In this document: positions 298 to 62,106 of the stretch, piece by piece
Numbering within the stretch: position 1 is the first letter of the stretch
Layout: every line of letters starts with the position of its first letter
Virus record (IMG/VR): IMGVR_UViG_3300024341_000001
Strand: one strand, 5' to 3'
Source of the DNA: a virus
Lineage: Duplodnaviria > Heunggongvirae > Uroviricota > Caudoviricetes
Length of the DNA stretch: 64,000 bases
Translations under genes and position numbers: made by a program
Notes under the pieces: generated by a model
Told to the model about the DNA's origin: nothing
Databases searched by the model: none
The model's input: the letters and a program-made list of their open reading frames with translations, nothing else

Positions 298-1515
298 TTA
301 ACCTAGCCGTCGGGTTCTATGTGCCTTAAGTCCCGCAACGGCCATTTTCTTGGTGCCGGTCAACTTAGCAATAGCGTTTGAAGACATAGTAGGATTTTTT
401 TCTACTAAGACCTTCGCCGCCTGCATTTTGTCGCCTGCTTTTAAATGAACTCGTATTGAATCCATAAGTATTCTCCTTTCCGCCTCTTTTTCTTTTCCCA
501 GATCAATACGGGCTTGTATTGTGGGAACTACGTTTCGATCTATAAACCAATCTAGCGCTTCACATATGGTGGACACTAATGCTGCTGTTCCATGATCTAC
601 AATATCTTTTAAGGCTTGCTCTAATGTCTGTATGGTTGCTGGAATATGCATATTTATCATTATTGGAGCAAATGAAAACATATCAATGAACATGGGGCTA
701 GGATTACTATTGTACTTAAATGCAGAGTGATCCATCACACGACGTGGCTGAACTTTGGCTGCCCACAAGAATTTTGCAAGCGCCTCATAGGGAATGTTAT
801 GATCAGCAGCTTTGAGGAATTCTTTTAATAAATCTTGACAATATCTACGTGTCATGTTTACGGCATCCTCTTCTATACATTCCCATGTATCCTCGGAGAT
901 TACATTATTTGTACTTGTTGCTGATATCCGTTCGTGAAATGAATTATCGAATTCCTCTTTATTCATACCGGTCACAAAATCGACTGCATTACAAGGGTAA
1001 TTCTCGGAAAACATGCTTAATACAAAAACACTGACAAGCGCCTCTTTGTTTAAATCTTTATAGATATTTTTCATAAAAGCGTAGGTTTCGGCAGAAAATC
1101 CGTTTTCACGTGCTCCCAAAAAATTAGTGATTACAATACCATCTTTGGCTAAGATATTAGGGGACGTGCCACCAATTTGTGTAAATTGTCCTTGAAAATC
1201 AAGCCACATTACATCAAATACCTGAGTGGTGATTGTTGCGAAATCAGCATAGGTAGTCCTTGGTAATAGATTAAATTTTAACTGTTGCGCAATTTTTTGT
1301 ACTTGAGGATACAGCGAAGGATTACATTCTAAACCATATAAGTTTTCCCTCTTGAACCCTAATGGATCAAAAATTTCAAATACATCATACGCGGTGACCC
1401 CTGGAAGAAATAATACTTTTTTATTCTTAGCATCACCAACAAGGTTGTGCTGAATAAATTTACGAATCTTTTTTCTTGATCGTCGTTTTACGATCATATC
1501 ATAATCTTTTTCCAT
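298..1515 (-). CDS. hypothetical protein (N-terminal region faintly Rossmann/methyltransferase-like)
   Basis: 405-aa ORF ending at a rho-independent terminator; no diagnostic motif recognised. Confidence 0.3.
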   Translation of the reverse strand: MEKDYDMIVKRRSRKKIRKFIQHNLVGDAKNKKVLFLPGVTAYDVFEIFDPLGFKRENLYGLECNPSLYPQVQKIAQQLKFNLLPRTTYADFATITTQVFDVMWLDFQGQFTQIGGTSPNILAKDGIVITNFLGARENGFSAETYAFMKNIYKDLNKEALVSVFVLSMFSENYPCNAVDFVTGMNKEEFDNSFHERISATSTNNVISEDTWECIEEDAVNMTRRYCQDLLKEFLKAADHNIPYEALAKFLWAAKVQPRRVMDHSAFKYNSNPSPMFIDMFSFAPIMINMHIPATIQTLEQALKDIVDHGTAALVSTICEALDWFIDRNVVPTIQARIDLGKEKEAERRILMDSIRVHLKAGDKMQAAKVLVEKNPTMSSNAIAKLTGTKKMAVAGLKAHRTRRLG

Positions 1516-2638: not shown

Positions 2639-2869
2639 TTAATTAATGATACGATGTGGTAGAATTCGACCTCCCATAGAAACATGCTCATAGTCGCTAT
2701 GGGTACGATGACTTATACTACCAACTTGATTCCCTAGATCACGGGGAATATGTGTTGGCTTTGACGTTAACACGGTTTGAATCACAGGCTTTCCGCACCT
2801 AGGACACGGATCGCCTGGATGTGCATTTTTGCATTCTCCGTGTTTAGAACACATTACATATACCGCCAT
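2639..2869 (-). CDS. small zinc-ribbon protein
   Basis: CSKHGEC...CPRCG paired Cys motifs. Confidence 0.3.
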   Translation of the reverse strand: MAVYVMCSKHGECKNAHPGDPCPRCGKPVIQTVLTSKPTHIPRDLGNQVGSISHRTHSDYEHVSMGGRILPHRIIN

Positions 2870-3374
2870 AGACTACTCCTTTCTTTTGTTTAACAGCTTC
2901 TGCAATCATTTTCATCTTAATTCGTTTACTTGGCCAAGGAATCAAATGCTGGTCCTTTATTATATTGTTACCTTTTTTATGGTTGCATTTAACACATAAT
3001 GTCTGCAAATTTTCTAGGTCATCTTTGCCGCCCAGTGACTTGGGTAATATATGATCTTTAGTAAATAATATTTCTTCATCACCAACACGTGCGTATAAAT
3101 TAAGATGATATCTGGTGTTCTCAACACTGGCATCGTACCCGTGAATATGTTTTTCCACAGCAAAATATTCTCCACGTAGTCCGCAGTGTTTACAGCTTAG
3201 GCTTTGACGAAATACCTTATAACGTATTGACTCCATGTGTATCCATTGTCCACAGATTAATCGATCTGGACGCCCTCGGCCGTCATAAATCTGTGTGAAT
3301 ACCTCATCTATAGGTACTATTCCGAGGCGTATCATAGAAGATAAAATCCCGAGATGAAAGCTAGAATCATACAA
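2844..3374 (-). CDS. HNH homing endonuclease
   Basis: DHILPKSLGGKDDLENLQTLCVKCNHKK = canonical HNH motif; upstream CKHCG Zn knuckle. Confidence 0.75.
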   Translation of the reverse strand: MYDSSFHLGILSSMIRLGIVPIDEVFTQIYDGRGRPDRLICGQWIHMESIRYKVFRQSLSCKHCGLRGEYFAVEKHIHGYDASVENTRYHLNLYARVGDEEILFTKDHILPKSLGGKDDLENLQTLCVKCNHKKGNNIIKDQHLIPWPSKRIKMKMIAEAVKQKKGVVYGGICNVF

Positions 3375-3502
3375 AATATGTGTAGGACTAGCCCCCAGCG
3401 CTTATTTTTGAATAGTATTAATTGTATCGCCAAAAAATCTAATAACAACGCTACAATAAAACCAATTACAGCATAAATATTAACATTTTGCATAATGCTC
3501 CT

Positions 3503-3730
3503 TTAATGATATAGATAATAAGTTTTTATAGAATCAGAAGATATCTTTAAACTGTCGATTGTCTTTTGCATTTGTTTCATACGATCCTTAATTTTTGCTT
3601 TCTCAGCTACATAATCTAGTTGTCGCATTTGTGCTTCAGTGTAATTATCATTTATCTGTAGCTGTTGTTCAAATAATATTACGGCAAAAAGAATAAGTAT
3701 GCCCGTATAAATTATATCTTTGGTACTCAT
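3503..3730 (-). CDS. small membrane protein with coiled-coil tail
   Basis: single TM (GILILFAVILF) then charged helix. Confidence 0.3.
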   Translation of the reverse strand: MSTKDIIYTGILILFAVILFEQQLQINDNYTEAQMRQLDYVAEKAKIKDRMKQMQKTIDSLKISSDSIKTYYLYH

Positions 3731-4008
3731 GTTTTATTTCCTTGCGAGATTATTAAAAACGCGGCTCCAGCAGTAAGCGAGAAGAAAAATATTCCTTCGG
3801 GATTAAGGATGGCGCACCAACATATACAAAAAAGAGATGTCACTAAACATATTACTGCAATCTTAACAAAATTATTTATTTTCATAATGATCTCCAAATT
3901 AACTACTGAACCGACAGTATGTTGTGCTGCCGGTTCAGGAAAGAAGTAACCTAATGGTTCTGGGCATCGGGCTACAATGGGATAGGAGTAAGCTGTTGTA
4001 AAATACAT
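3727..4008 (-). CDS. hypothetical membrane protein
   Basis: two hydrophobic segments; overlapping-stop arrangement with neighbours. Confidence 0.25.
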   Translation of the reverse strand: MYFTTAYSYPIVARCPEPLGYFFPEPAAQHTVGSVVNLEIIMKINNFVKIAVICLVTSLFCICWCAILNPEGIFFFSLTAGAAFLIISQGNKT

Positions 4009-4607: not shown

Positions 4608-5020
4608 TGGCTGAATCATCTAGTATTCAGAAGTATGTATTTCGATGTACACACTGTACCTTTTCGCCGGTACCCCTCGGCTATCCTAGTAATAGTCCAG
4701 TTCGACCCAACCCTATGTAGATGCATAGACCCAATGTAGGTTGGATGAATTTTTTGTTCGCGCATACCCTTCAGTCATACATTGAATAGGCTGAAAAGAG
4801 TACCTGCTTTTATCATCACCCAAGCAACGACTTTTGCATAGTCATCACCAGTTTGGAGATAATACGTTGTTATCTTCCAACGGTCCCTTTTAGTATATGC
4901 TTCGCGTTAGCATACTACTATTTAGAACCACACTCACGTCCGCAGATTAGAGTAACATGATTTAATCATTAATATGGTTGGTATGCGCCTTCCATATAAT
5001 GATAGCTTTGGTACTTATTA

Positions 5021-5029
5021 TCTTATACC
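5021..5029 (+). repeat. TCTTATACC motif copy 5
   Basis: overlaps the stop codon of 5023..5571; followed (minus direction) by a 470-nt noncoding stretch. Confidence 0.6.
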
Positions 5030-5571
5030 TGAATTAAACATTGCTGTATCTTTTGTTTTGTAATGATTCCGTTTTGCGTAAGTTCGTTAAGTTTTTCAAG
5101 ATCTATATGATCTTCAGCTTTTACCTTAACCTGAATCCACAGTGGTTCATTTGGACGATAATCAAGAAAAGTTTTTGGTTTACACCGTAGTATCTCTGTA
5201 AACATTTGAACTATTCGTTCTCCGGCTTGCTTACATCTTACAAATCCAGCCAAATCATAACCAACACCTCTGGGCGCAAAATATTCCCCCTCGGGAGGTG
5301 GGTTGTCTGGCACTACCAAATTATGTGCTGGAACATGCGCACGTGGATGTGGTGATACCTCTGGAAATACGGCAGGATCACCATGACCTATGGTAGATAC
5401 TGATAGATGATCCGAAACAATATAAAAAGCTTCCTTGCATTCAAGGCATTGTACGCAAGTTGTCCCATTCCCAGAAAGATAACCAGTAGCGGAAGAACAC
5501 CCGCATTGCGGACACCCATATGCATTGAAGTCGGCAAAGTGAATCGCTATATTCATATTATACTCCGACAA
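5023..5571 (-). CDS. hypothetical Zn-ribbon protein with dUTPase-like fragment
   Basis: N-terminal CPQCGC...CVQCLEC; C-terminal GVGYDLAGF...GERIVQMF resembles dUTPase motifs I and IV, but the middle motifs are absent. Confidence 0.3.
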   Translation of the reverse strand: MSEYNMNIAIHFADFNAYGCPQCGCSSATGYLSGNGTTCVQCLECKEAFYIVSDHLSVSTIGHGDPAVFPEVSPHPRAHVPAHNLVVPDNPPPEGEYFAPRGVGYDLAGFVRCKQAGERIVQMFTEILRCKPKTFLDYRPNEPLWIQVKVKAEDHIDLEKLNELTQNGIITKQKIQQCLIQV

Positions 5572-8423: not shown

Positions 8424-9695
8424 ATGGAAACTTTTTATGCTAAGGTATTAGAACAGCTGGACGATTATCGATTCAAGGTCAAGCGTATGAATGCAGTTGA
8501 AAGGAGCGAAGCGTCATTAGCTGAAGTAGCAACAGTACTGTCTATGATGCCAACAGGACGAGGTGCTGGATTTCGTGCTGGTGCTAGTAAATGCGATAAT
8601 TTATATGCTGTATGTTTTAAAGATTCTGCATATATGGTTTTTATCCTGGGGTTTGTTCCAGGTAGTTTTGCGCGAGAAATTACTAGATCTGAACCTGGTG
8701 GATTTGTATTAGCTAGTGCAGATAATACACATGTTAAAGCATTCGGTGACGGATCATTAAGTTTATATACATCTGAATATTCACAATTAGTATTAGAGCC
8801 ACGAGCTGAATCGTTATTTGGACAATTCAAAAATGTAACCTTTAAATATTGGACAGGCAGTAATAGTATCAGACCTGGTATATACCGATTCTATTATGCC
8901 AAGGATCAAGATCTTACCGCATTACCTACACACAAAACAGATACTAAGCCAGATAATTTTATAATCGATATTGGTAAATCAGATGAAGCTAAAGGCACTG
9001 TTAACTTTTGGATAAAAGAAAATTATGATTCAACTGGATCTTCCATATATTCATTAACTGGTACAATAGGCGACAAAAATATTATTGCTTTGTCGTTTGC
9101 TGAGACAGATTTAAAAATTACATCAGATATTACATGGACAACCGATGGTGCATTATTATATTCTGTAAAAAACACTGACACAAAAAATAATGTTCAGTGG
9201 AAGTTTGATGAGAAGTCATTGATAAGCACACTGACCTTCAACGATGCTAAAGCTAAAGTTGATCTAATACTGGATTCATCAGTGGACAATCAATTTAGTA
9301 TTATTGGTAGTGGCGAAGGTGCAAGTAAGAAATATTCATTAGCAATGGGCACGGGTTCAAGTGCATTAATACTACGTCTAGCCGATGATAAAGTTAAATT
9401 AGATATTGCCAGTGATGGTGGTATTATATTAGATAATGGTAAATGTGTAATTACTGTTACCGCTAGCGGTGATGTTACGATTAAAGCGGACGGTACAATT
9501 AAGATTGGTGGATCCGGTAATGAACAGCGATTAGTGACAGAAAGTTGGGTCAAGGACGAGTACGCTAAGCATCAACATCAAGCACAAGGCCCGGCATCAC
9601 CTACAAGTACACCTTTTCCATTAGATATGAGTATATATTCACCAGGCTCAGACAGCAGTTCAAATCAATTTACAAATACAACGAGGGCAGAATAA
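8424..9695 (+). CDS. hypothetical beta-rich protein (possible virion/fibre-like)
   Basis: 423 aa; Ser/Thr/Gly-rich beta-strand repeats; leaderless. Confidence 0.35.
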   Translation: METFYAKVLEQLDDYRFKVKRMNAVERSEASLAEVATVLSMMPTGRGAGFRAGASKCDNLYAVCFKDSAYMVFILGFVPGSFAREITRSEPGGFVLASADNTHVKAFGDGSLSLYTSEYSQLVLEPRAESLFGQFKNVTFKYWTGSNSIRPGIYRFYYAKDQDLTALPTHKTDTKPDNFIIDIGKSDEAKGTVNFWIKENYDSTGSSIYSLTGTIGDKNIIALSFAETDLKITSDITWTTDGALLYSVKNTDTKNNVQWKFDEKSLISTLTFNDAKAKVDLILDSSVDNQFSIIGSGEGASKKYSLAMGTGSSALILRLADDKVKLDIASDGGIILDNGKCVITVTASGDVTIKADGTIKIGGSGNEQRLVTESWVKDEYAKHQHQAQGPASPTSTPFPLDMSIYSPGSDSSSNQFTNTTRAE

Positions 9696-9985: not shown

Positions 9986-10303
9986 ATGAATCTAAATAAA
10001 CTCGGATTTGAAAAGAAAAGAACAGATGACTTAATAGCTGGTGGTACCGCAGGTGCCTTGGCTAATTTAGTTGTCGCCCCTATTGATGCAATCGCAGATT
10101 CACGTCGCGCTGGTACATTTTTAGGACATAAACTTATGTCAAAAACTATTCCGGCGCAGATAAAAGAAATGTATTACATAGGTGGCCCCAAAGGATTTTT
10201 TTCTGGAGCCGGTGTAAAAATGCTTAAAGTAGCACCTGCTTCAGCTCTATCATTTGCACTCTATGGAATTACCAAAGACATACTTCAACGAAAAAATAAG
10301 TGA
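9986..10303 (+). CDS. small Gly/Ala-rich membrane protein
   Basis: LIAGGTAGALANLVVAPI hydrophobic Gly-rich segments. Confidence 0.3.
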   Translation: MNLNKLGFEKKRTDDLIAGGTAGALANLVVAPIDAIADSRRAGTFLGHKLMSKTIPAQIKEMYYIGGPKGFFSGAGVKMLKVAPASALSFALYGITKDILQRKNK

Positions 10304-28814: not shown

Positions 28815-31475
28815 ATGTTACAATTTAAATTATCAGACTTCGTACAAAAGTTTTTTTATCTTAATAATGAACCATTCAGTTTGGATGACTATCCACACAT
28901 GAAATTGATTTATGATATTGATCCAATGAAGTTGTGTTTACATACGAGTCGCCAAGTCGCTAAATCTACCACGCTGTCAAATTTCATGTTAGCTAAATGT
29001 ATTTTAATGCCATATGTTAGCAACAGGCATAAGGGTGGATTTAAAATTTTGGCAGTATCGCCCACTGTTGAACAGGTACGCGTATTTTCATATGATCGTG
29101 TTGATACTGTTATAGAACAAAGCCCGATATTTAAAAAATATTTTGTAAGTAGTTCCACAATTCAAAACGTATTCCAAAAACGTTTCCTTAATGGTAGTGT
29201 TATTTATTTACGTTATGGATCTGCAACTGCCGATCGTATTCGTGGTATATCTGCTGACATGAATTGTTTTGATGCAAATACAGAAATTCTCACCGAGAAT
29301 GGTTGGAAATTATTTAAAAATCTTCTCGACGATGAAAGAGTTGCTACAGTAAATGACAAAACGGGAATGGTAGAATATCATTTACCCGATATGTATATCC
29401 AAAAAGCATATCAAGGTAAACTAGTTAAATTTACGCAGCGCAGTTTTAATCTTTGCGTGACCCCTGATCATATAATGAACGTATCACAGGAATTAAGTAC
29501 TGGTTACTATCAGAATCCAAAAGTTAAAGGCTGGTTTAATATAAAAGCACAACAGTTAGCAGGAAAAAATTTTAAATTAGGTGTTAGGGGAAATTGGGAG
29601 TCAGCCAATCCCGTCGATTTTTAATTACCTGAACAAATTGTTGCAAATAAGTTAGACGGATCTCCGTATAAATATCCCAAAAAGATACCCAGTTTTTCAG
29701 CGCCATTGAAAATTTTCATGCAATTTATGGGGTGGTTTTTAGCTGAGGGGTATATATCTCCTGCGGGACAAATACGTATAATACAAAACGAAGGTGCATA
29801 CTCAGACGAAATTCGACATTGCTTAACAGCAATGGGAGTTAAATGGGGCGTTGTTGCCAGACATAATAAAAATGCTGTATGTAATACATTTTACTTTGCA
29901 AACGCTGCTTTATCTAGATACTTATATGCTTTGGGCACCTCGCATGATAAATATATACCTAGGGAATTATTAAATTACATACAATATCTACCGGACCTTT
30001 TAAATGCCTTATATAAAGGAGATGCCATGCATGTACAAGACTTCGGTCATAACGGGGGACAGTTAGTTACAGCATCAATCGAGTTAGCAAATACAGTACA
30101 GGAGGCATGGCTTCGCTTGGGGTATCTTTGTAGTATTAGAAGTCGAAAACCAGCATATAACGGAACAATTTTATATAACGTCGGACGCTATAAAAAAGAC
30201 AGCATAATATTTTGGAACGGATATACAAATAATTCGCGCATCGAATATATAGATTACATTGGACCAGTTTATTGTGTCGGCGTAAAGAATCACTTGATTT
30301 TTGTAAGAGATGCGATAGAAAAGTTACCTATAGTGTGTCATCAGTGTCTGGACGAAATCCAAGATATTCCCGATGATAACATCGATGTCATTGAACAAAC
30401 AATGGCGCGATCATTTTACAAACATTCGATATATGCAGGAACTCCAAAACATATTATCGGGCCATTAGCAAATCGATGGCGTCAGACTACTAGAAATGAA
30501 TGGATTGCAAAATGCCAGCATTGTGAGAAACAAAACTTTCTTGACGAAGAAAACATTCAACCATGGGGGCTTGCTTGTAGATATTGCAAAATGTCTCTAG
30601 ACGCGCGCAACGGACAATGGGTGCGTACAAATCCCGAATCAGACAAATCTATTCATGATGGATCGTACTTGTTTGAGGGGTTTAGAGTTAGTGTTTTAAT
30701 GTTTGCCCACGCGCCTTGGGTAAATTGGCAGACGGATGTTTATATACCATTTCAAACAAAATCCAAAGGCGTATTTTTTAACGAGTATCTAGGGCTACCA
30801 TATGATGCCGGTGTCGCTCCAGTAACCGAAGAGGAAATTAAAGCATGTTGCACTGGTGGGCCAATGATTCAGGAACCAGATCGTCGCACCAGAGATTATC
30901 CCACGTTTATGGGAATGGACTGGGGGCCAATTAACAGCGAAATGTCAAAAACGTTGATGACAATTTCGCAACGTCGCGGTGATGTTACAGAAATAATCTA
31001 CCTACATAAGTATGAAGGTAAAGAAGCTGATTATGCTTATCTACATGAGCATATACCGGCAGAATATTACAGATGGGGCTGTGCATTAATAGGAGCTGAT
31101 GCCGGTTTTGGTGAGGCAGTGAATGCTGAAGTACGAAATCGTATAAATGATAAAACCAGATTAATAGCATTTCAACATGTGCCGAATCAAAAACAACGTG
31201 GTCAGTTCAATGGGCATATTCAGGCATATACCTTATCTCGCAACACCGTGATGACTGATTTATTTACTAAGATAAAACAGCGGAAGATCGTTTTCCCGCA
31301 ATGGAGTGACTTTCAATATTATGCGAAAGATATACTGGCTATTGCGATTGAATATAACGAAGAAAAGAACACGTACAGATATATTAAGTCTGCCGCCGAC
31401 GACACCTTCCATAGCATTTTGTATGGAGACCTGGCTGCAGAATTATATTACCGTGCCTCTGCATTTAATAATTAA
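28815..31475 (+). CDS. terL: terminase large subunit (ATPase-nuclease), interrupted by an intein
   Basis: Walker A TSRQVAKSTT. The spliced junction ...ISADMN|CLDEIQD restores the Walker B hhhhDE motif. The C-extein carries a nuclease-type domain. N-extein = 28815..29264, C-extein = 30345..31475. There is an in-frame TAA at 29622..29624 inside the intein. Confidence 0.85.
29265..30344 (+). mobile_element. intein with LAGLIDADG homing-endonuclease domain (C-terminal Gln variant)
   Basis: Block A CFDANTEILTENGW (Cys1). Block B LCVTPDHIMNV (TxxH). LAGLIDADG motifs FMGWFLAEGYI and LLNALYKGDAM. Block G VYCVGVKNHLIFV, ending CHQ followed by the +1 Cys. 1080 nt = 360 codons. Confidence 0.8.
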
Positions 31476-43167: not shown

Positions 43168-44525
43168 AAATTTTGTTCTGTATATATGAATTGGATTATG
43201 CTGATCATATAGCGATAGCGCACTTATCCGCTATTGCTAAAAAACGTGATCATCAGACATTTTTCTGTGCTTTAACAGATTATCCAACTGTTTTGAATTC
43301 ATATAAACCGGACATTGTAGCTTATTCTTTAAATGTTTATGGATATAAAGAAATGATTGATGCACATAAATTAGCGAAAACAAAACACAATTTTTTATCT
43401 ATAGCTGGTGGGCCTCAGATTACTTTTGCACCGCAAGATTTCGAAAACACGGCCATCGACGCTTTCTGTGTTGGCGAGGGAGATCTTGTATTTGATGACT
43501 TTCTTAAATGTGTAGAAAATAATGAATCCTACGACAATGTTTTAAATATAATAACAAAAGAAAAGATAAATCCTATACGACCACTCATTAGTGACTTAAA
43601 TATTTTGCCCGAAGCGGACAGGGATTTGGTGTTGAATAATTCCTTCTTAAAGAATACTCCTAAAAAAACCTTTTACGCTACAAGGGGATGCCCGTTCTTT
43701 TGTCATTATTGTGCAAATAGCGCGTATCGTGCTTTGTATAAAGGGAAGGGTAAATCTGCTAGACGGTTTTCACCAGATCGAATTATTGATGAAATACAAC
43801 GTGTTCGTAAAAATTATCGCACAGAGTTCATAAAATTCGGGGACGATCTTTTCGCATTAAAAGCAGATAGTTGGCTTGATGCGTTTACCCGTAGATATAA
43901 GAAGGAAGTAGATTTGCCGTTCAATTGCTATTTACGCATTGACCACGTAGATAAAGATTTACTTGCTATGTTGAAGTCCGCCAATTGCTACTCCGTTCAT
44001 CTATCCGTTGACAGTATGTCAGAACATGTGCGCGAAGCAGTATTGGGACGACATATGCAAAAGATCGATGTAACGAAAACAGCGCGTATGATCGCAGATA
44101 CAGGAATACGCACGTGGGTTAATTTTATGTTGGCGGCTCCTGAATCTACGGTGAAAGATGATATGGATATCATTGATTTTGGTTATAAAGGTAAGGTTAC
44201 ATATTTGGCCTGTTCAACTACAGTACCAATGAATGGTACCAAACTTTATGAATATAGTTTACAAAAAGGTATTCTTGATCCAACATATGTAGGAGATATG
44301 ACAGACTGTTCAAAGAAATCCCCGTACAAGTCTTTTTCTGAACGTGAAAAAGAAATACGCTATAATATTTTCTTACTTGGAAGTTTTGCGGCTAAATTAC
44401 CTAATCCATTACGCGCGTGTATGAAATTACTTATACGCTATATAAAACCTAATAAATTATTTATATTTGTCAGAGATAAGTATTACAAGTATAGTATAGA
44501 AAACAGAATTTTTAAATTAGCATAA
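43164..44525 (+). CDS. B12-binding radical SAM enzyme (class-B rSAM, methyltransferase-like)
   Basis: CPFFCHYCAN = CxxxCxxC radical-SAM cluster; N-terminal cobalamin-binding-like domain; ATG 43164 overlaps the upstream stop (ATGA). Confidence 0.6.
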   Translation: MKILFCIYELDYADHIAIAHLSAIAKKRDHQTFFCALTDYPTVLNSYKPDIVAYSLNVYGYKEMIDAHKLAKTKHNFLSIAGGPQITFAPQDFENTAIDAFCVGEGDLVFDDFLKCVENNESYDNVLNIITKEKINPIRPLISDLNILPEADRDLVLNNSFLKNTPKKTFYATRGCPFFCHYCANSAYRALYKGKGKSARRFSPDRIIDEIQRVRKNYRTEFIKFGDDLFALKADSWLDAFTRRYKKEVDLPFNCYLRIDHVDKDLLAMLKSANCYSVHLSVDSMSEHVREAVLGRHMQKIDVTKTARMIADTGIRTWVNFMLAAPESTVKDDMDIIDFGYKGKVTYLACSTTVPMNGTKLYEYSLQKGILDPTYVGDMTDCSKKSPYKSFSEREKEIRYNIFLLGSFAAKLPNPLRACMKLLIRYIKPNKLFIFVRDKYYKYSIENRIFKLA

Positions 44526-59771: not shown

Positions 59772-60064
59772 TAATTTTTATAGAAAAATTTTGATATATT
59801 TTCGATGTCTTTTGCTATATAAGCCAGACTGGTACTTGAATACCGATCGTTCAACTTATTCAGCTCCGCTGGTATAGAACTTAATGCACCAGTCAATACG
59901 CGAAAGCTATCTGTTAAGTCACATAATGCCATTCCTTGCGCATATTTTGTTGCTATATTGTAACGCTCATATTCTGTTAATTTAGTACCTTCTGTCAGTT
60001 CTAATCCCTTCATGAAATAATATTGAAATCCATTCATTATTTCTTCCAATAGGGGGCTATGCAT
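59771..60064 (-). CDS. hypothetical protein
   Basis: 97 aa. Confidence 0.3.
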   Translation of the reverse strand: MHSPLLEEIMNGFQYYFMKGLELTEGTKLTEYERYNIATKYAQGMALCDLTDSFRVLTGALSSIPAELNKLNDRYSSTSLAYIAKDIENISKFFYKN

Positions 60065-60834
60065 GATTCAACTTTTATTTTTACGTTTTTTACGTAAAGC
60101 TCACCTGCTTCTAACATGCATTTTCGAAGCATAGCTTCGGCTTCTTCAGCCTGAGATTTTTTCACGTTTAGTATAATCTCATCATGAATTGTGCAAATAA
60201 TCTTTGCAGTTGATTTACTTTTTTTTATTTCTTCGCGTATGTGTGTAAGAGCAATTTTTGTTATACTAGCATTTCCCGACTGCATCGGAAAATTCATTGT
60301 CATATTACGCACGCGAGCGCGCTCTTTATTGGAATCGAAATCGAATCCTTCTAGCCAGCGCAATCTATTATCATATGGCGAACGCACACATCTATTAGTT
60401 ATGCACTTCGCAACATATGCGTCAAAGAAGTTTTTGACGTTTGGGAAACTAGCCCAATAACTATTAATTATTTGTCGGGCCTCCGCAAAAGGTATTTTTG
60501 CTTCTCTCGCGAGTTTTTGTGCCCCCATTCCATATGAAATTCCGAAATTAAGCGATTTTACAATTTTGCGTAATTCAAGATTTTCACCTGGGTCGTCGGG
60601 CCCATTAGTACCTTTTAGTCGTATAGGTTTTCCCATAACTACGGAACCAATTTCGCAGTGCATATCTAAATTCTTTTCAAAAATTTCCATCCATTTAGGT
60701 TCTTTTGAAAGGTCTGCGAGAATTCGCAATTCCATATTTGAGTAGTCAGCATCTACTAACAAATCTTCGTCCGTGTGAGCAACAAATGCTTCACGGTATA
60801 GCGATGTATCTTTTACAGGTATATTTTGTAAGTT
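60037..60834 (-). CDS. polA: family-A DNA polymerase, exon 2 (palm/fingers: motifs A, B, C)
   Basis: NLQNIPV...DYSNMELRILA (motif A), RKIVKSLNFGISYGMG (motif B), CTIHDEII (motif C); the ORF-track ATG 60837..60835 is the last 3 nt of the intron. Confidence 0.85.
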   Translation of the reverse strand, partial: NLQNIPVKDTSLYREAFVAHTDEDLLVDADYSNMELRILADLSKEPKWMEIFEKNLDMHCEIGSVVMGKPIRLKGTNGPDDPGENLELRKIVKSLNFGISYGMGAQKLAREAKIPFAEARQIINSYWASFPNVKNFFDAYVAKCITNRCVRSPYDNRLRWLEGFDFDSNKERARVRNMTMNFPMQSGNASITKIALTHIREEIKKSKSTAKIICTIHDEIILNVKKSQAEEAEAMLRKCMLEAGELYVKNVKIKVESCIAPYWKK

Positions 60835-61107
60835 CATTTTGTTCGAGGTAATGCGTTAAATTACCTCCGGAATATTTTCCAGCTATATATTACTATATAG
60901 ATCAGACTATTTCATCACAAATGTGAGGTGTATTTCGCGATACTTATCGCTACGTCTTTCGACTAGTCGTTACACGTTTCTTAAGTCGGTGTTTAGATTT
61001 CCACAAAGATAAAACAATCTTCTTAAGTTTAGCTCGAGATTGGCTCTTTGAGCGTTTCCTCGAATTAGCACCTTTTTGTTTAATTTTCATTAAACCCCCA
61101 ATATTTT
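60835..61107 (-). mobile_element. group I self-splicing intron (no ORF) splitting polA
   Basis: Splits the invariant TGRxSSxxPNLQNIP motif. Exon 1 ends ...AAAAACCCU. The intron has an IGS GGGGGUUU giving a 7-bp P1 with U.G at the splice site. P7-like GACUA...UAGUC pair about 55 nt apart. GNRA-capped hairpin CTATATAgtaaTATATAG. The last intron nucleotide is G. Confidence 0.75.
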
Positions 61108-62106
61108 AGGGTTTTTACTGCTATACCTGCCGGTATCAGTTTCGGCTTGATTAAATTCAGTATGTATTAATCCAGTTAGTTCGTGTATATTTTTTAAAAA
61201 CGCTTCACCATAAGTAGTTACACGTTTTTCCATTCCACGATAATATAACAACGCATCGATAATGGGATGACTAATTTCTTTCAATTCCCCTTCACGAGTC
61301 GTTGTGATATTTTTGTCGACAGCCGTTTGTAGCACGTTAAGTAACTGTTTTGGGCTGTTATAATTAATAATAGGTCTTCCAAAAATGTCATTTTCGATAT
61401 ACGGTATCAGCATTTTATCTAACTTATCTAAGGCAACAGTTCTTTCACGTTTTGCCACAGCTTCAGCTGCTAGCCATTTGGTACGGTCTATTTTCATACC
61501 ATTTAATTCCATATCACCAGTAGCCATAATAACACCCATCTCAGTATTTATAACCTGTTGCAAATTATCTCTAATTATAAGTTTTTGTTGGGCGTCCATT
61601 ATTGCTGCCAAATGCTTTATATCACCTGCCGCATATTCAACTTGTGGGGTACTTATTGCATCCCCGTAAGACATATTTTGAAACGTCTGGCGTACTGTTT
61701 TATTTAACAAAACACCGGTATATTTTTCACTTACTACATCTAATCCGAACCCGGACATTTTTCGCCCTTTTTGTAACAATTGTTCGGCTAACATAGTATC
61801 AAATATATTTTCTGTTTCTATACCCAGGTCTCTTTTTAGGAATTTATAATCAAATTTTGCGTTATGCATTATTTTCGTTATGCTTTGACTCTCAAAGAAG
61901 GGGCGTAATAACTGGATGCTATCATGTAAACGTGCGACATCAAAGACATATTGTTGATACATATTTCCCATTTGTATTAACAATATTTTATCACGTATGG
62001 CATCAATGCCTGTAGTCTCTGTATCTACGTTTATTACTTTCAAAGTCTTTAGAAAAGTTAATGCCTCATCGAATTCTTTCCCTGTGGTTTTTATAAAATG
62101 TACCAT
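61108..62106 (-). CDS. polA: family-A DNA polymerase, exon 1 (3'-5' exonuclease + N-terminal polymerase region)
   Basis: VDTETTG (Exo I), YAAGDI (Exo III), ...QAETDTGRYSSKNP ends at the splice point; the intron-encoded tail KILGV* follows in the raw ORF. Confidence 0.85.

Follow-up and report, generated by a model that had tools for sequence, protein, structure and literature searches.

A predicted td-like group IA2 intron with a probable endonuclease remnant in a family-A DNA polymerase gene from an uncultivated tailed phage

The family-A DNA polymerase (PolA) gene of an uncultivated tailed phage of ~215 kb is very probably interrupted by a group I intron. This intron splits the PNLQNIP motif in phase 0, after its Pro and before its Asn codon, and probably once carried an endonuclease gene; we infer its splicing from the sequence. 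The intron was located within a stretch of 64,000 nucleotides, hereafter called the window, where the polymerase gene is found on the minus strand in the following arrangement.

62106..61108, minus strand: PolA exon 1, 333 codons (999 nt), ending ...TDTGRYSSKNP
61107..60835, minus strand: predicted group I intron of subgroup IA2, 273 nt from A 61107 to G 60835, with P1 to P9.2 all present
60834..60037, minus strand: PolA exon 2, 798 nt (265 codons and a stop), starting NLQNIPV

Polymerase exons and splice boundaries

The boundaries of the intron are exact. Exon 1 ends with U 61108, which is the 5' splice site, the intron occupies 61107..60835 and exon 2 starts with the AAC codon at 60834. A preliminary description of this DNA had placed a 273-nt group I intron inside the motif TGRxSSxxPNLQNIP, with exon 1 ending in U and the intron ending in G. 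All of this is borne out by the exact boundaries (U 61108 and G 60835), by the phase-0 split between P and N and by the unbroken Pfam match obtained when the two exons are joined.

Exon 1 encodes the 3'-5' exonuclease domain (Pfam DNA_pol_A_exo1) followed by the N-terminal portion of the polymerase domain (DNA_pol_A positions 29-128), and exon 2 encodes motif A (DYSNMELR) together with the remaining polymerase domain (DNA_pol_A positions 127-380 of 381). The matches of the two pieces taken singly, 29-128 and 127-380, are thus abutting. Both exons, at 999 and 798 nt, divide into whole codons, and the insertion is of phase 0, between P and N. Joining of the exons gives a 598-aa family-A polymerase which reads ...TDTGRYSSKNP/NLQNIPVKDTS... 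across the junction and which matches DNA_pol_A in one unbroken stretch (29-380 of 381, 287 bits) with the exonuclease domain ahead of it.

When the gene is read without splicing, the upstream ORF (62106..61090) ends ...TDTGRYSSKNPKILGV followed by a stop, as the frame continues through five intron codons (KILGV) and then meets TAA. The downstream ORF (60837..60037) starts MNLQNIPV, where the ATG is formed by the last three bases of the intron (AUG, with the G being the terminal guanosine). An intron-less relative, L057, has a PolA that is 71% identical over the full length and reads ...AGTAATCCT/AACCTACAAAATATACC... (AGTAATCCT/AACCTACAA) unbroken at the same point.

No isolated phage has a PolA that reaches 32% identity with that of the present phage, and many relatives are found in metagenomes. 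Among its best 81 homologues, six end at the Pro/Asn site, including the exon-1 product of the window itself, and about 70 run across the site, of which about nine are cut further downstream.

Same-site relatives and distribution

Homologous introns were found at the same codon boundary in L006/L007, L008 and L009. The L008 intron (270 nt) is without an endonuclease and those of L006/L007 (684 nt) and L009 (694 nt) both carry an endonuclease ORF. The loop of P6a is 36 nt long in the window, 24 nt in L008, 441 nt in L006 and 440 nt in L009. By exon 1, the PolA of the window is 66% identical to that of L006 and 59% identical to that of L008. For L006 itself, the nearest PolA is the one of the intron-less L057 (72%).

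The sequence of the window recurs on 17 contigs carrying the exon-1 protein, all of which are of this type and eight of which are longer than 200 kb. In all five contigs that were inspected, which come from different samples, the intron is identical base for base. No spliced or intron-less version of this PolA was found in 5.8 billion protein clusters, the best full-length match being 71% identical, and the exact 30-mer of the ligated exons was not found in JGI metagenome contigs, a result that says nothing on RNA. The intron therefore appears to persist in every sampled copy.

Evidence for a group I ribozyme

An Rfam scan of 60700..61250 (551 nt) gave a match to Intron_gpI (RF00028, gathering score 50 bits) at 61117..60883 on the minus strand, with 69.4 bits, an E-value of 1.3e-17 and coverage of model positions 1-253 of 253. 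Scans of the whole 64-kb window, at gathering as well as E-value thresholds, gave no Intron_gpI match, as the intron is AT-rich (35% G+C) and is discarded by the speed filters. An Rfam covariance search had been proposed as a check of the intron, with a score below noise counting against it. The narrow scan gives a clear match, and the empty whole-window scan has to be read as a false negative in this respect. The minimum-free-energy fold taken by itself is modestly better than those of shuffled sequences (z = -2.9).

Covariation was assessed on a hand-made, N-padded structural alignment (A3) of the four same-site introns (window, L006, L008 and L009). This alignment contains 14 helices and 72 pairs, where 98.2% of the cells are paired and 31 of the 72 pairs have changed on both sides. 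When the pairing partners were slid by 1-3 columns, one to four compensatory pairs were left, and none of 500 shuffles reached the observed values. A3 replaced a plain MAFFT alignment (A1) in which P1 and P8 were misaligned and a strand of P3 was wrongly paired by RNAalifold. The unguided MAFFT and RNAalifold run on the four introns (A1) gave 24 compensatory pairs out of 68. Both A3 and the 30-member alignment described below were fitted to the structure and their paired percentages are inflated as a result, a concern which is lessened by the slid controls and the unguided run.

A covariance model (R1) was built from A3. Within the window, R1 gives 230 bits for this intron, near the best member of the family, and this is the sole significant match. 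No second intron of the same subfamily was found there by R1 with default filters, the next match having 6.6 bits (E 0.91); introns of other group I subtypes may exist. A motif search of the window returned this intron and one match with three mismatches at 43988, which is compatible with chance. A core motif was used to fetch 46 IMG/VR phage contigs, in which R1 finds dozens of related introns. None of the introns on these 46 contigs lies inside PolA, and the contigs were used for covariation only. For the 30 best R1 family members, pairing extends to 93.9% of the cells and covariation to 65 of 67 pairs; the covariation score is 0.589, compared with 0.05-0.10 when slid. Since the related IMG/VR introns sit outside PolA, the ribozyme lineage is widespread, with different guides in different genes.

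In three of the four same-site homologues, a single position of P4 is non-canonical. P7 never varies and therefore the covariation counts say nothing on it. Judged by sequence and predicted structure, the region 61107..60835 is a group I intron.

Anatomy of the intron

The predicted structural elements of the intron, in 5' to 3' order, are listed below.

61093..61113, minus strand: P1, AACCCU (61113..61108) with the guide GGGGUU (61098..61093), loop AAAAUAUUG
61081..61092, minus strand: P2 hairpin, UAAU-GAAA-AUUA
60974..61073, minus strand: 5' half of the core, with the 5' strand of P3, P4, P5, P6 and P6a
60986..61021, minus strand: loop of P6a, 36 nt
60905..60968, minus strand: 3' half of the core, with P7, P7.1, G-U-A, P7.2, the 3' strand of P3, P8 and J8/7
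60835..60900, minus strand: 3' peripheral domain, with P9, P9.1, P9.2 and the tail CGAACAAAAUG ending in the terminal guanosine

In P1, U 61108 is located opposite G 61098 to form the wobble pair. Neither this U.G pair nor three C-G pairs of P1 change among the four same-site homologues, and P1 was observed to covary with the host exon in same-family introns of other genes. The internal guide had been described as lying nine nucleotides into the intron, and indeed GGGGGUUU at intron nt 9-16 pairs with AAACCCU through the U.G wobble. Three of the four pairs of P2 are compensatory; this hairpin can be extended to UUUAAU/AUUAAA, where it overlaps P1, and the ATG of the remnant ORF discussed below (61090..61088) is found here.

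The core contains P3, which is formed by AGGUG (61073..61069) with CACCU (60930..60926) and has compensatory changes in three of its five pairs, P4 (UCGAGG/UCUCGA), P5 (GCUC-AAA-GAGC), P6 (GC/GU) and P6a (CUUAAG/CUUAAG, four of six pairs compensatory). P7 is formed by GACUA (60968..60964) with UAGUC (60909..60905) and is invariant among the same-site homologues. These two strands had previously been described as flanking a hairpin; the pairing itself stands as P7, but it encloses P7.1, P7.2, the 3' strand of P3 and P8 rather than one hairpin. The segment 60963..60937 consists of P7.1 (GUC-GAAA-GAC), the linker G-U-A (60953..60951) and P7.2 (GCGAU-AAGU-AUCGC), and both helices covary. Compensatory changes were found in four of five pairs of P7.2 and in four of six pairs of P8 (CAC-AUUU-GUG), and J8/7 reads AUGAAA.

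The 3' peripheral domain is made up of P9 (CUAUAUA-GUAA-UAUAUAG), P9.1 (CUGGAA-AAUA-UUCCGG) and P9.2 (60866..60846, AGGUAAU-UUAACGC-AUUACCU). The hairpins in this region had been described as GNRA-capped, which is correct for P9 (GUAA) but not for P9.2, where the loop is the seven-nucleotide UUAACGC. A P10 helix conserved across the four same-site introns was not found: L006 has a 6-bp pairing (UGUAGA/UUUACA) that is absent in the window, L008 and L009.

The joining of P7.1 and P7.2 by G-U-A is the criterion for subgroup IA2 (PMC3428280). Because G-U-A joins P7.1 and P7.2 here, R1 matches the td intron and the 3' end is identical to that of td to a large extent by blastn (see below), the intron is assigned from its predicted structure to subgroup IA2 with a td-like core.

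The remnant of an HNH endonuclease

A short reading frame was found inside the intron.

61090..60950, minus strand: putative remnant ORF MKIKQKGANSRKRSKSQSRAKLKKIVLSLWKSKHRLKKRVTTSRKT, 46 codons, corresponding to the N-terminal 34 and C-terminal 12 codons of an HNH_3 ORF

This ORF is highly basic and has neither a nuclease core nor a Pfam match. Its counterparts in L006 (182 aa) and L009 (178 aa) are HNH_3 ORFs that are 60% identical to each other, and an intact intron endonuclease is also present on contig P0061. In L006 and L009 the HNH_3 ORF starts at an ATG in or just after P2, reads through P3-P6 into the P6a loop (~440 nt) and ends at a TAG which is made up of the G-U-A linker and the first base of P7.2. 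The same stop is used by the remnant in the window. Over its full length, the L006 endonuclease shares 34% identity with the characterised nickase I-PfoP3I (E 1e-23).

With the L006 HNH protein as query, tblastn aligned residues 4-34 with 61084..60992 and residues 170-182 with the adjoining 60991..60953, and the predicted deletion junction is accordingly located at 60992/60991, inside the P6a loop. The loop of the window encodes KIVLSLWKSK..HR, which resembles endonuclease codons ~25-34 (KVLKYWKTSK in L009 and KIIKYWHTRK in L006) and has an end like that of L006 (..LHQ). An intact homing endonuclease is absent from the intron of the window, where codons 35-169 of the HNH_3 ORF are missing, and a free-standing copy of the lost HNH_3 gene was not found in the 64-kb window. 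Another HNH_3 match in the window, weak and in frame (E 0.002), was noticed in the ORF at 8424..9695, which is without a Pfam match.

The intron had been called ORF-less. This holds in that no intact endonuclease is present, but the tblastn alignment reveals a 46-codon in-frame HNH remnant. It is likely that the 46-codon ORF is what an in-frame deletion has left of an HNH endonuclease gene, and that the intron is not primitively empty; this scenario rests on ~12 loop codons beyond the helices that are constrained by the RNA. As the endonuclease core would have been lost, the intron would no longer home by itself. The pattern of short-loop, endonuclease-carrying and empty states agrees with the classical homing cycle, where gain of the intron, loss of its endonuclease and loss of the intron itself follow one another repeatedly.

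Comparison with known introns

The closest RNA is the td-type intron of T4. R1 matches the td intron of the T4-like phage HP3 over its full length with 115 bits (E 8e-37), and the last 83 nt of the intron (nt 191-273) are 76.5% identical by blastn to the td intron of T4-like phages. The 3' splice sites also align, with ...UGAACAUAAUG before the site in td and ...CGAACAAAAUG in the window. Both introns have the same helices, including P7.1, P7.2, P9.1 and P9.2 with a UAACGA-type loop. The td intron differs in its host gene and its guide, and identity is low outside the core. In T4, the P6a loop of the td intron holds the gene for the GIY-YIG endonuclease I-TevI, not an HNH gene.

The insertion site is one that has been observed before. 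The intron of Pf-WMP3 is located between Pro363 and Asn364, and those of SPO1, SP82 and Bastille are at the same place (PMC3428280). We checked the Pf-WMP3 sequence (EF537008) directly and found ..TRLSSSKP/NIQQIPS, in phase 0 and with an insertion point identical to that of the window. The Pf-WMP3 intron belongs to IA2, with P7.1 and P7.2 joined by G-U-A and with an endonuclease ORF in P6a that reads on through P7-P7.2, and both its splicing and its nicking activity have been demonstrated experimentally (PMC3428280). Its unspliced RNA likewise leads to a fragment with the exonuclease only (PMC3428280). However, the Pf-WMP3 intron is without P2 and its ORF starts in P6a (PMC3428280), compared with a start at P2 in the lineage of the window. 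Furthermore, its ribozyme is only distantly similar (30 bits with R1), the copy in the window is without the endonuclease core, and Pf-WMP3 is a 43-kb T7-like podovirus whereas the phage of the window is ~215 kb and has a tail sheath.

The preliminary description had named SPO1 as having an intron at exactly this PolA position, and rightly so: the SPO1-type phage SPO1L5 reads ..TGRLSSNEP/NAQQFPR with an I-HmuI-like ORF in between, in agreement with PMC3428280. The introns of SPO1, SP82 and Bastille share the PolA site; they are group I introns which splice themselves and encode nicking endonucleases of the HNH type (I-HmuI, I-HmuII and I-BasI), but all of them carry an intact ORF, unlike the intron of the window. 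R1 has no match in the SPO1L5 locus at E-values up to 1, and the SPO1-type intron therefore represents a different RNA lineage.

A parallel for the loss of the endonuclease is the T4 nrdB intron, where a truncated I-TevIII is a defunct endonuclease (PMC2790892, PMC1865063). Like the intron of the window, it combines a competent ribozyme (competence being predicted for the window copy) with an endonuclease ORF inactivated by deletion, and it is immobile without help in trans. The two introns differ in host gene and in endonuclease family.

Proposed mechanism and alternative explanations

Group I introns splice in a well-established way: a guanosine attacks at the U.G pair of P1, P7 then takes up the terminal guanosine, and ligation of the exons follows. 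In the present intron, the guide GGGGUU would pair with the exon end AACCCU to form P1, placing the U.G wobble at the cleavage site, and free guanosine held in P7 would attack after U 61108. The terminal G 60835 would then enter the guanosine site and the 3'-OH of exon 1 would attack after G 60835. Ligation would give ...CCU/AAC... (...AAAAACCCU/AACUUACAA...), an mRNA for a single 598-aa polymerase, and the spliced product would contain the junction-spanning peptide SSKNPNLQNIPVK. Unspliced RNA would yield only a 338-aa fragment with the exonuclease domain because TAA lies five codons into the intron.

The ancestor would have been a mobile intron with the gene for an HNH nicking endonuclease, a homologue of I-PfoP3I. 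An in-frame deletion in the P6a loop would have removed codons 35-169, i.e. the nuclease core, leaving the 46-codon stub and an intact ribozyme. We infer this order of events, from endonuclease-carrying to deleted, and the intron would now be carried vertically in all sampled copies. It is possible, though rather unlikely, that the intron is kept because it benefits the phage and not simply because it is difficult to lose. It would then be a resistance allele, where the occupied Pro/Asn site destroys the recognition sequence of an I-PfoP3I-type nickase from co-circulating relatives of the L006/L009 type; likewise with low probability, the 46-aa stub could still be translated or splicing could gate the timing of polymerase synthesis. 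The site of I-PfoP3I is known to span the insertion point (PMC3428280), and interference between co-infecting phages via an intron endonuclease has been described for PhiPA3 and PhiKZ (PMC11620839).

The two coding pieces might also be read as a truly split polymerase, with the 338-aa exonuclease-plus-thumb piece and a 266-aa piece from ATG 60837 acting as subunits on either side of an intergenic spacer. Gene callers do give two ORFs, the second with an ATG start, and public annotations of other phages keep such pieces separate (examples are Pf-WMP3, with gp5.1, and phage HP3, with two CDS for thymidylate synthase). We regard this as exceedingly improbable, as the break lies inside an invariant motif with the Pfam matches abutting at 128/127 and the spacer constitutes a complete group I ribozyme that is backed by covariation. 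In addition, the ATG at the junction is not conserved, since the introns of L006 and L008 end ...AAGG and have no ATG there, and no Shine-Dalgarno sequence is found at a usable distance, the nearest GGAGG being ~30 nt upstream and buried in the P9.1/P9.2 stems. A relic that no longer splices, with PolA a pseudogene replaced by a polymerase elsewhere in the 215-kb genome, or splicing that depends entirely on a protein cofactor, is slightly less remote and still very improbable. The degenerate endonuclease does correspond to the stage of the homing cycle before decay of the intron, J8/7 is AUGAAA compared with AUGAUA or AUAAUA in the three same-site homologues, and the survey covers 64 kb of the ~215-kb genome. 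Against this, both exons are intact and open, all core helices are intact with pairing in the sequence of the window itself, and R1 places this copy near the best family member (230 bits). The J8/7 variant GAAAUAGUCU also occurs in the family members L033 and L042, and contigs longer than 200 kb from independent samples carry the sequence without change, as expected of a viable phage.

A further alternative accepts the intron and concerns its history: the short P6a loop could be ancestral, with the HNH gene having invaded later in the lineages of L006 and L009. It is accepted that mobile group I introns arise when an endonuclease gene invades a peripheral loop, and much of the tblastn alignment (residues 4-24 and 170-182) falls on P2-P6a and P6a-P7.1, where the sequence would be conserved by RNA structure alone. 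However, the loop of the window still encodes codons specific to the endonuclease (KIVLSLWKSK..HR), and the loops of the window and L008 differ (36 versus 24 nt) in a way that looks like independent erosion. Compared by exon 1, the PolA of the window also has more in common with L006, which carries the endonuclease (66%), than with L008, which has the short loop (59%), and the homologue I-PfoP3I, which a distant cyanophage encodes in the same loop at this PolA site, points to an old association of intron and endonuclease. An intron that never had an endonuclease is therefore considered improbable, and loss by deletion is preferred.

Other elements of the window and significance

The three HNH genes that had been reported in the window were confirmed. 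For an intein in the window the support is indirect and comes from the ORF at 29706..31475 (589 aa), which has a LAGLIDADG_3 match. No tRNA genes were found in the window.

Both the class of this intron and the site it occupies are well known; it is an ordinary case and leaves the current understanding of group I introns unchanged. What is added here is the td-like IA2 assignment, the I-PfoP3I-type lineage with its putative remnant, the three states of the site and the failure of the Rfam filters. The last of these has a practical side, as a genuine group I intron scoring 19 bits above the threshold can go unnoticed in default Rfam scans of ~64-kb windows. Annotations of the public contigs of this phage should merge the 46-aa ORF and both PolA ORFs into one spliced gene. 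With this intron, an uncultivated clade of large phages joins the phages whose family-A polymerase has been invaded at the Pro/Asn hotspot, and the one clade would display three stages of the homing cycle, namely the empty site, the intron with an endonuclease and the intron from which the endonuclease has probably been deleted.

Interruptions of PolA in other phages

PolA of the relatives L006 and L008, which carry the homologous intron at the same site as the window, was observed to be interrupted a second time downstream of the first intron (L006, 4990..5628; L008, 3148..3993), and this second interruption is missing from the window. The interruption in L006 contains a partial match at 5011-5122 to R1, the covariance model built from four PolA-site introns, which suggests that it is also a group I intron. 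That in L008 contains a LAGLIDADG_2 ORF at 3241-3915. About nine other PolA homologues are broken 96-140 aa downstream of the first site. The first site itself may be interrupted in the Staphylococcus phages 184DA (OR885926.1) and CUB-M (OR495701.1) because the tblastn matches of the junction peptide begin precisely at the Asn of NLQNIP in both phages.

P1 and the exon end

The exon residue at position -4 (window 61111) was found to be C in all four intron-containing alleles (exon end ACCCT), where its partner is a guide-sequence G, and T in the intron-less allele of the relative L057 (exon end AATCCT). This C/T difference could be due to either co-conversion or selection for the strength of P1, but it remains an anecdotal observation, since the intron-less state was read from a single allele. 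The endonuclease ORF, of which the window has only a remnant, starts at an ATG that is preceded, at a distance of 4-8 nt, by the guide sequence GGGGG (window 61099..61088). We speculate from this arrangement that GGGGG might double as the ribosome-binding site of the endonuclease ORF, in which case the formation of P1 would hide the site.

Annotated start codons at intron ends

The second thymidylate synthase CDS annotated in Escherichia phage HP3 (NC_041919.1) begins at an AUG (1281..1283 of the td locus, L059) which forms the final three bases of the HP3 td intron. The start of this CDS is an annotation artefact, as is that of the 'MNLQNIP' ORF in the window.

Other ORFs of the window

Three ORFs with HNH motifs, a LAGLIDADG_3 ORF and a carrier-like ORF were located in the window:

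2844..3374, minus strand: small free-standing ORF with an HNH motif, 176 aa
21158..21667, plus strand: small free-standing ORF with an HNH motif, 169 aa
40768..41052, plus strand: small free-standing ORF with an HNH motif, 94 aa
29706..31475, plus strand: LAGLIDADG_3 ORF, 589 aa (Pfam match at residues 99-164, E 1e-5)
9986..10303, plus strand: Mito_carr (mitochondrial carrier) ORF, 105 aa (Pfam, E 9.3e-14, ORF sweep)

The Pfam sweep of ORFs gave three HNH/HNH_5 members in the window, in agreement with the three HNH genes of the preliminary description, and none of the three free-standing HNH ORFs is homologous to the HNH_3 gene that the intron has lost. The 589-aa ORF, which matched no Pfam family other than LAGLIDADG_3, is probably the gene earlier described as containing an intein. 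The position of the Mito_carr ORF was found by phmmer using a bovine ADP/ATP carrier sequence as the query; a single-repeat carrier-like protein, as predicted here, is unusual in a tailed phage genome.

Detection and spread of the introns

The Rfam Intron_gpI model was observed to overlook a genuine 69-bit intron at both thresholds when the whole 64 kb was scanned at once, and further introns of this phage genome could be similarly overlooked. At each of four loci outside PolA in IMG/VR phage contigs (L014, L021, L031 and L046), 3 to 6 separate matches to R1 were found within a few kb. Some phage genes therefore appear, as judged by these model matches, to be riddled with introns of the IA2 subfamily that R1 represents.
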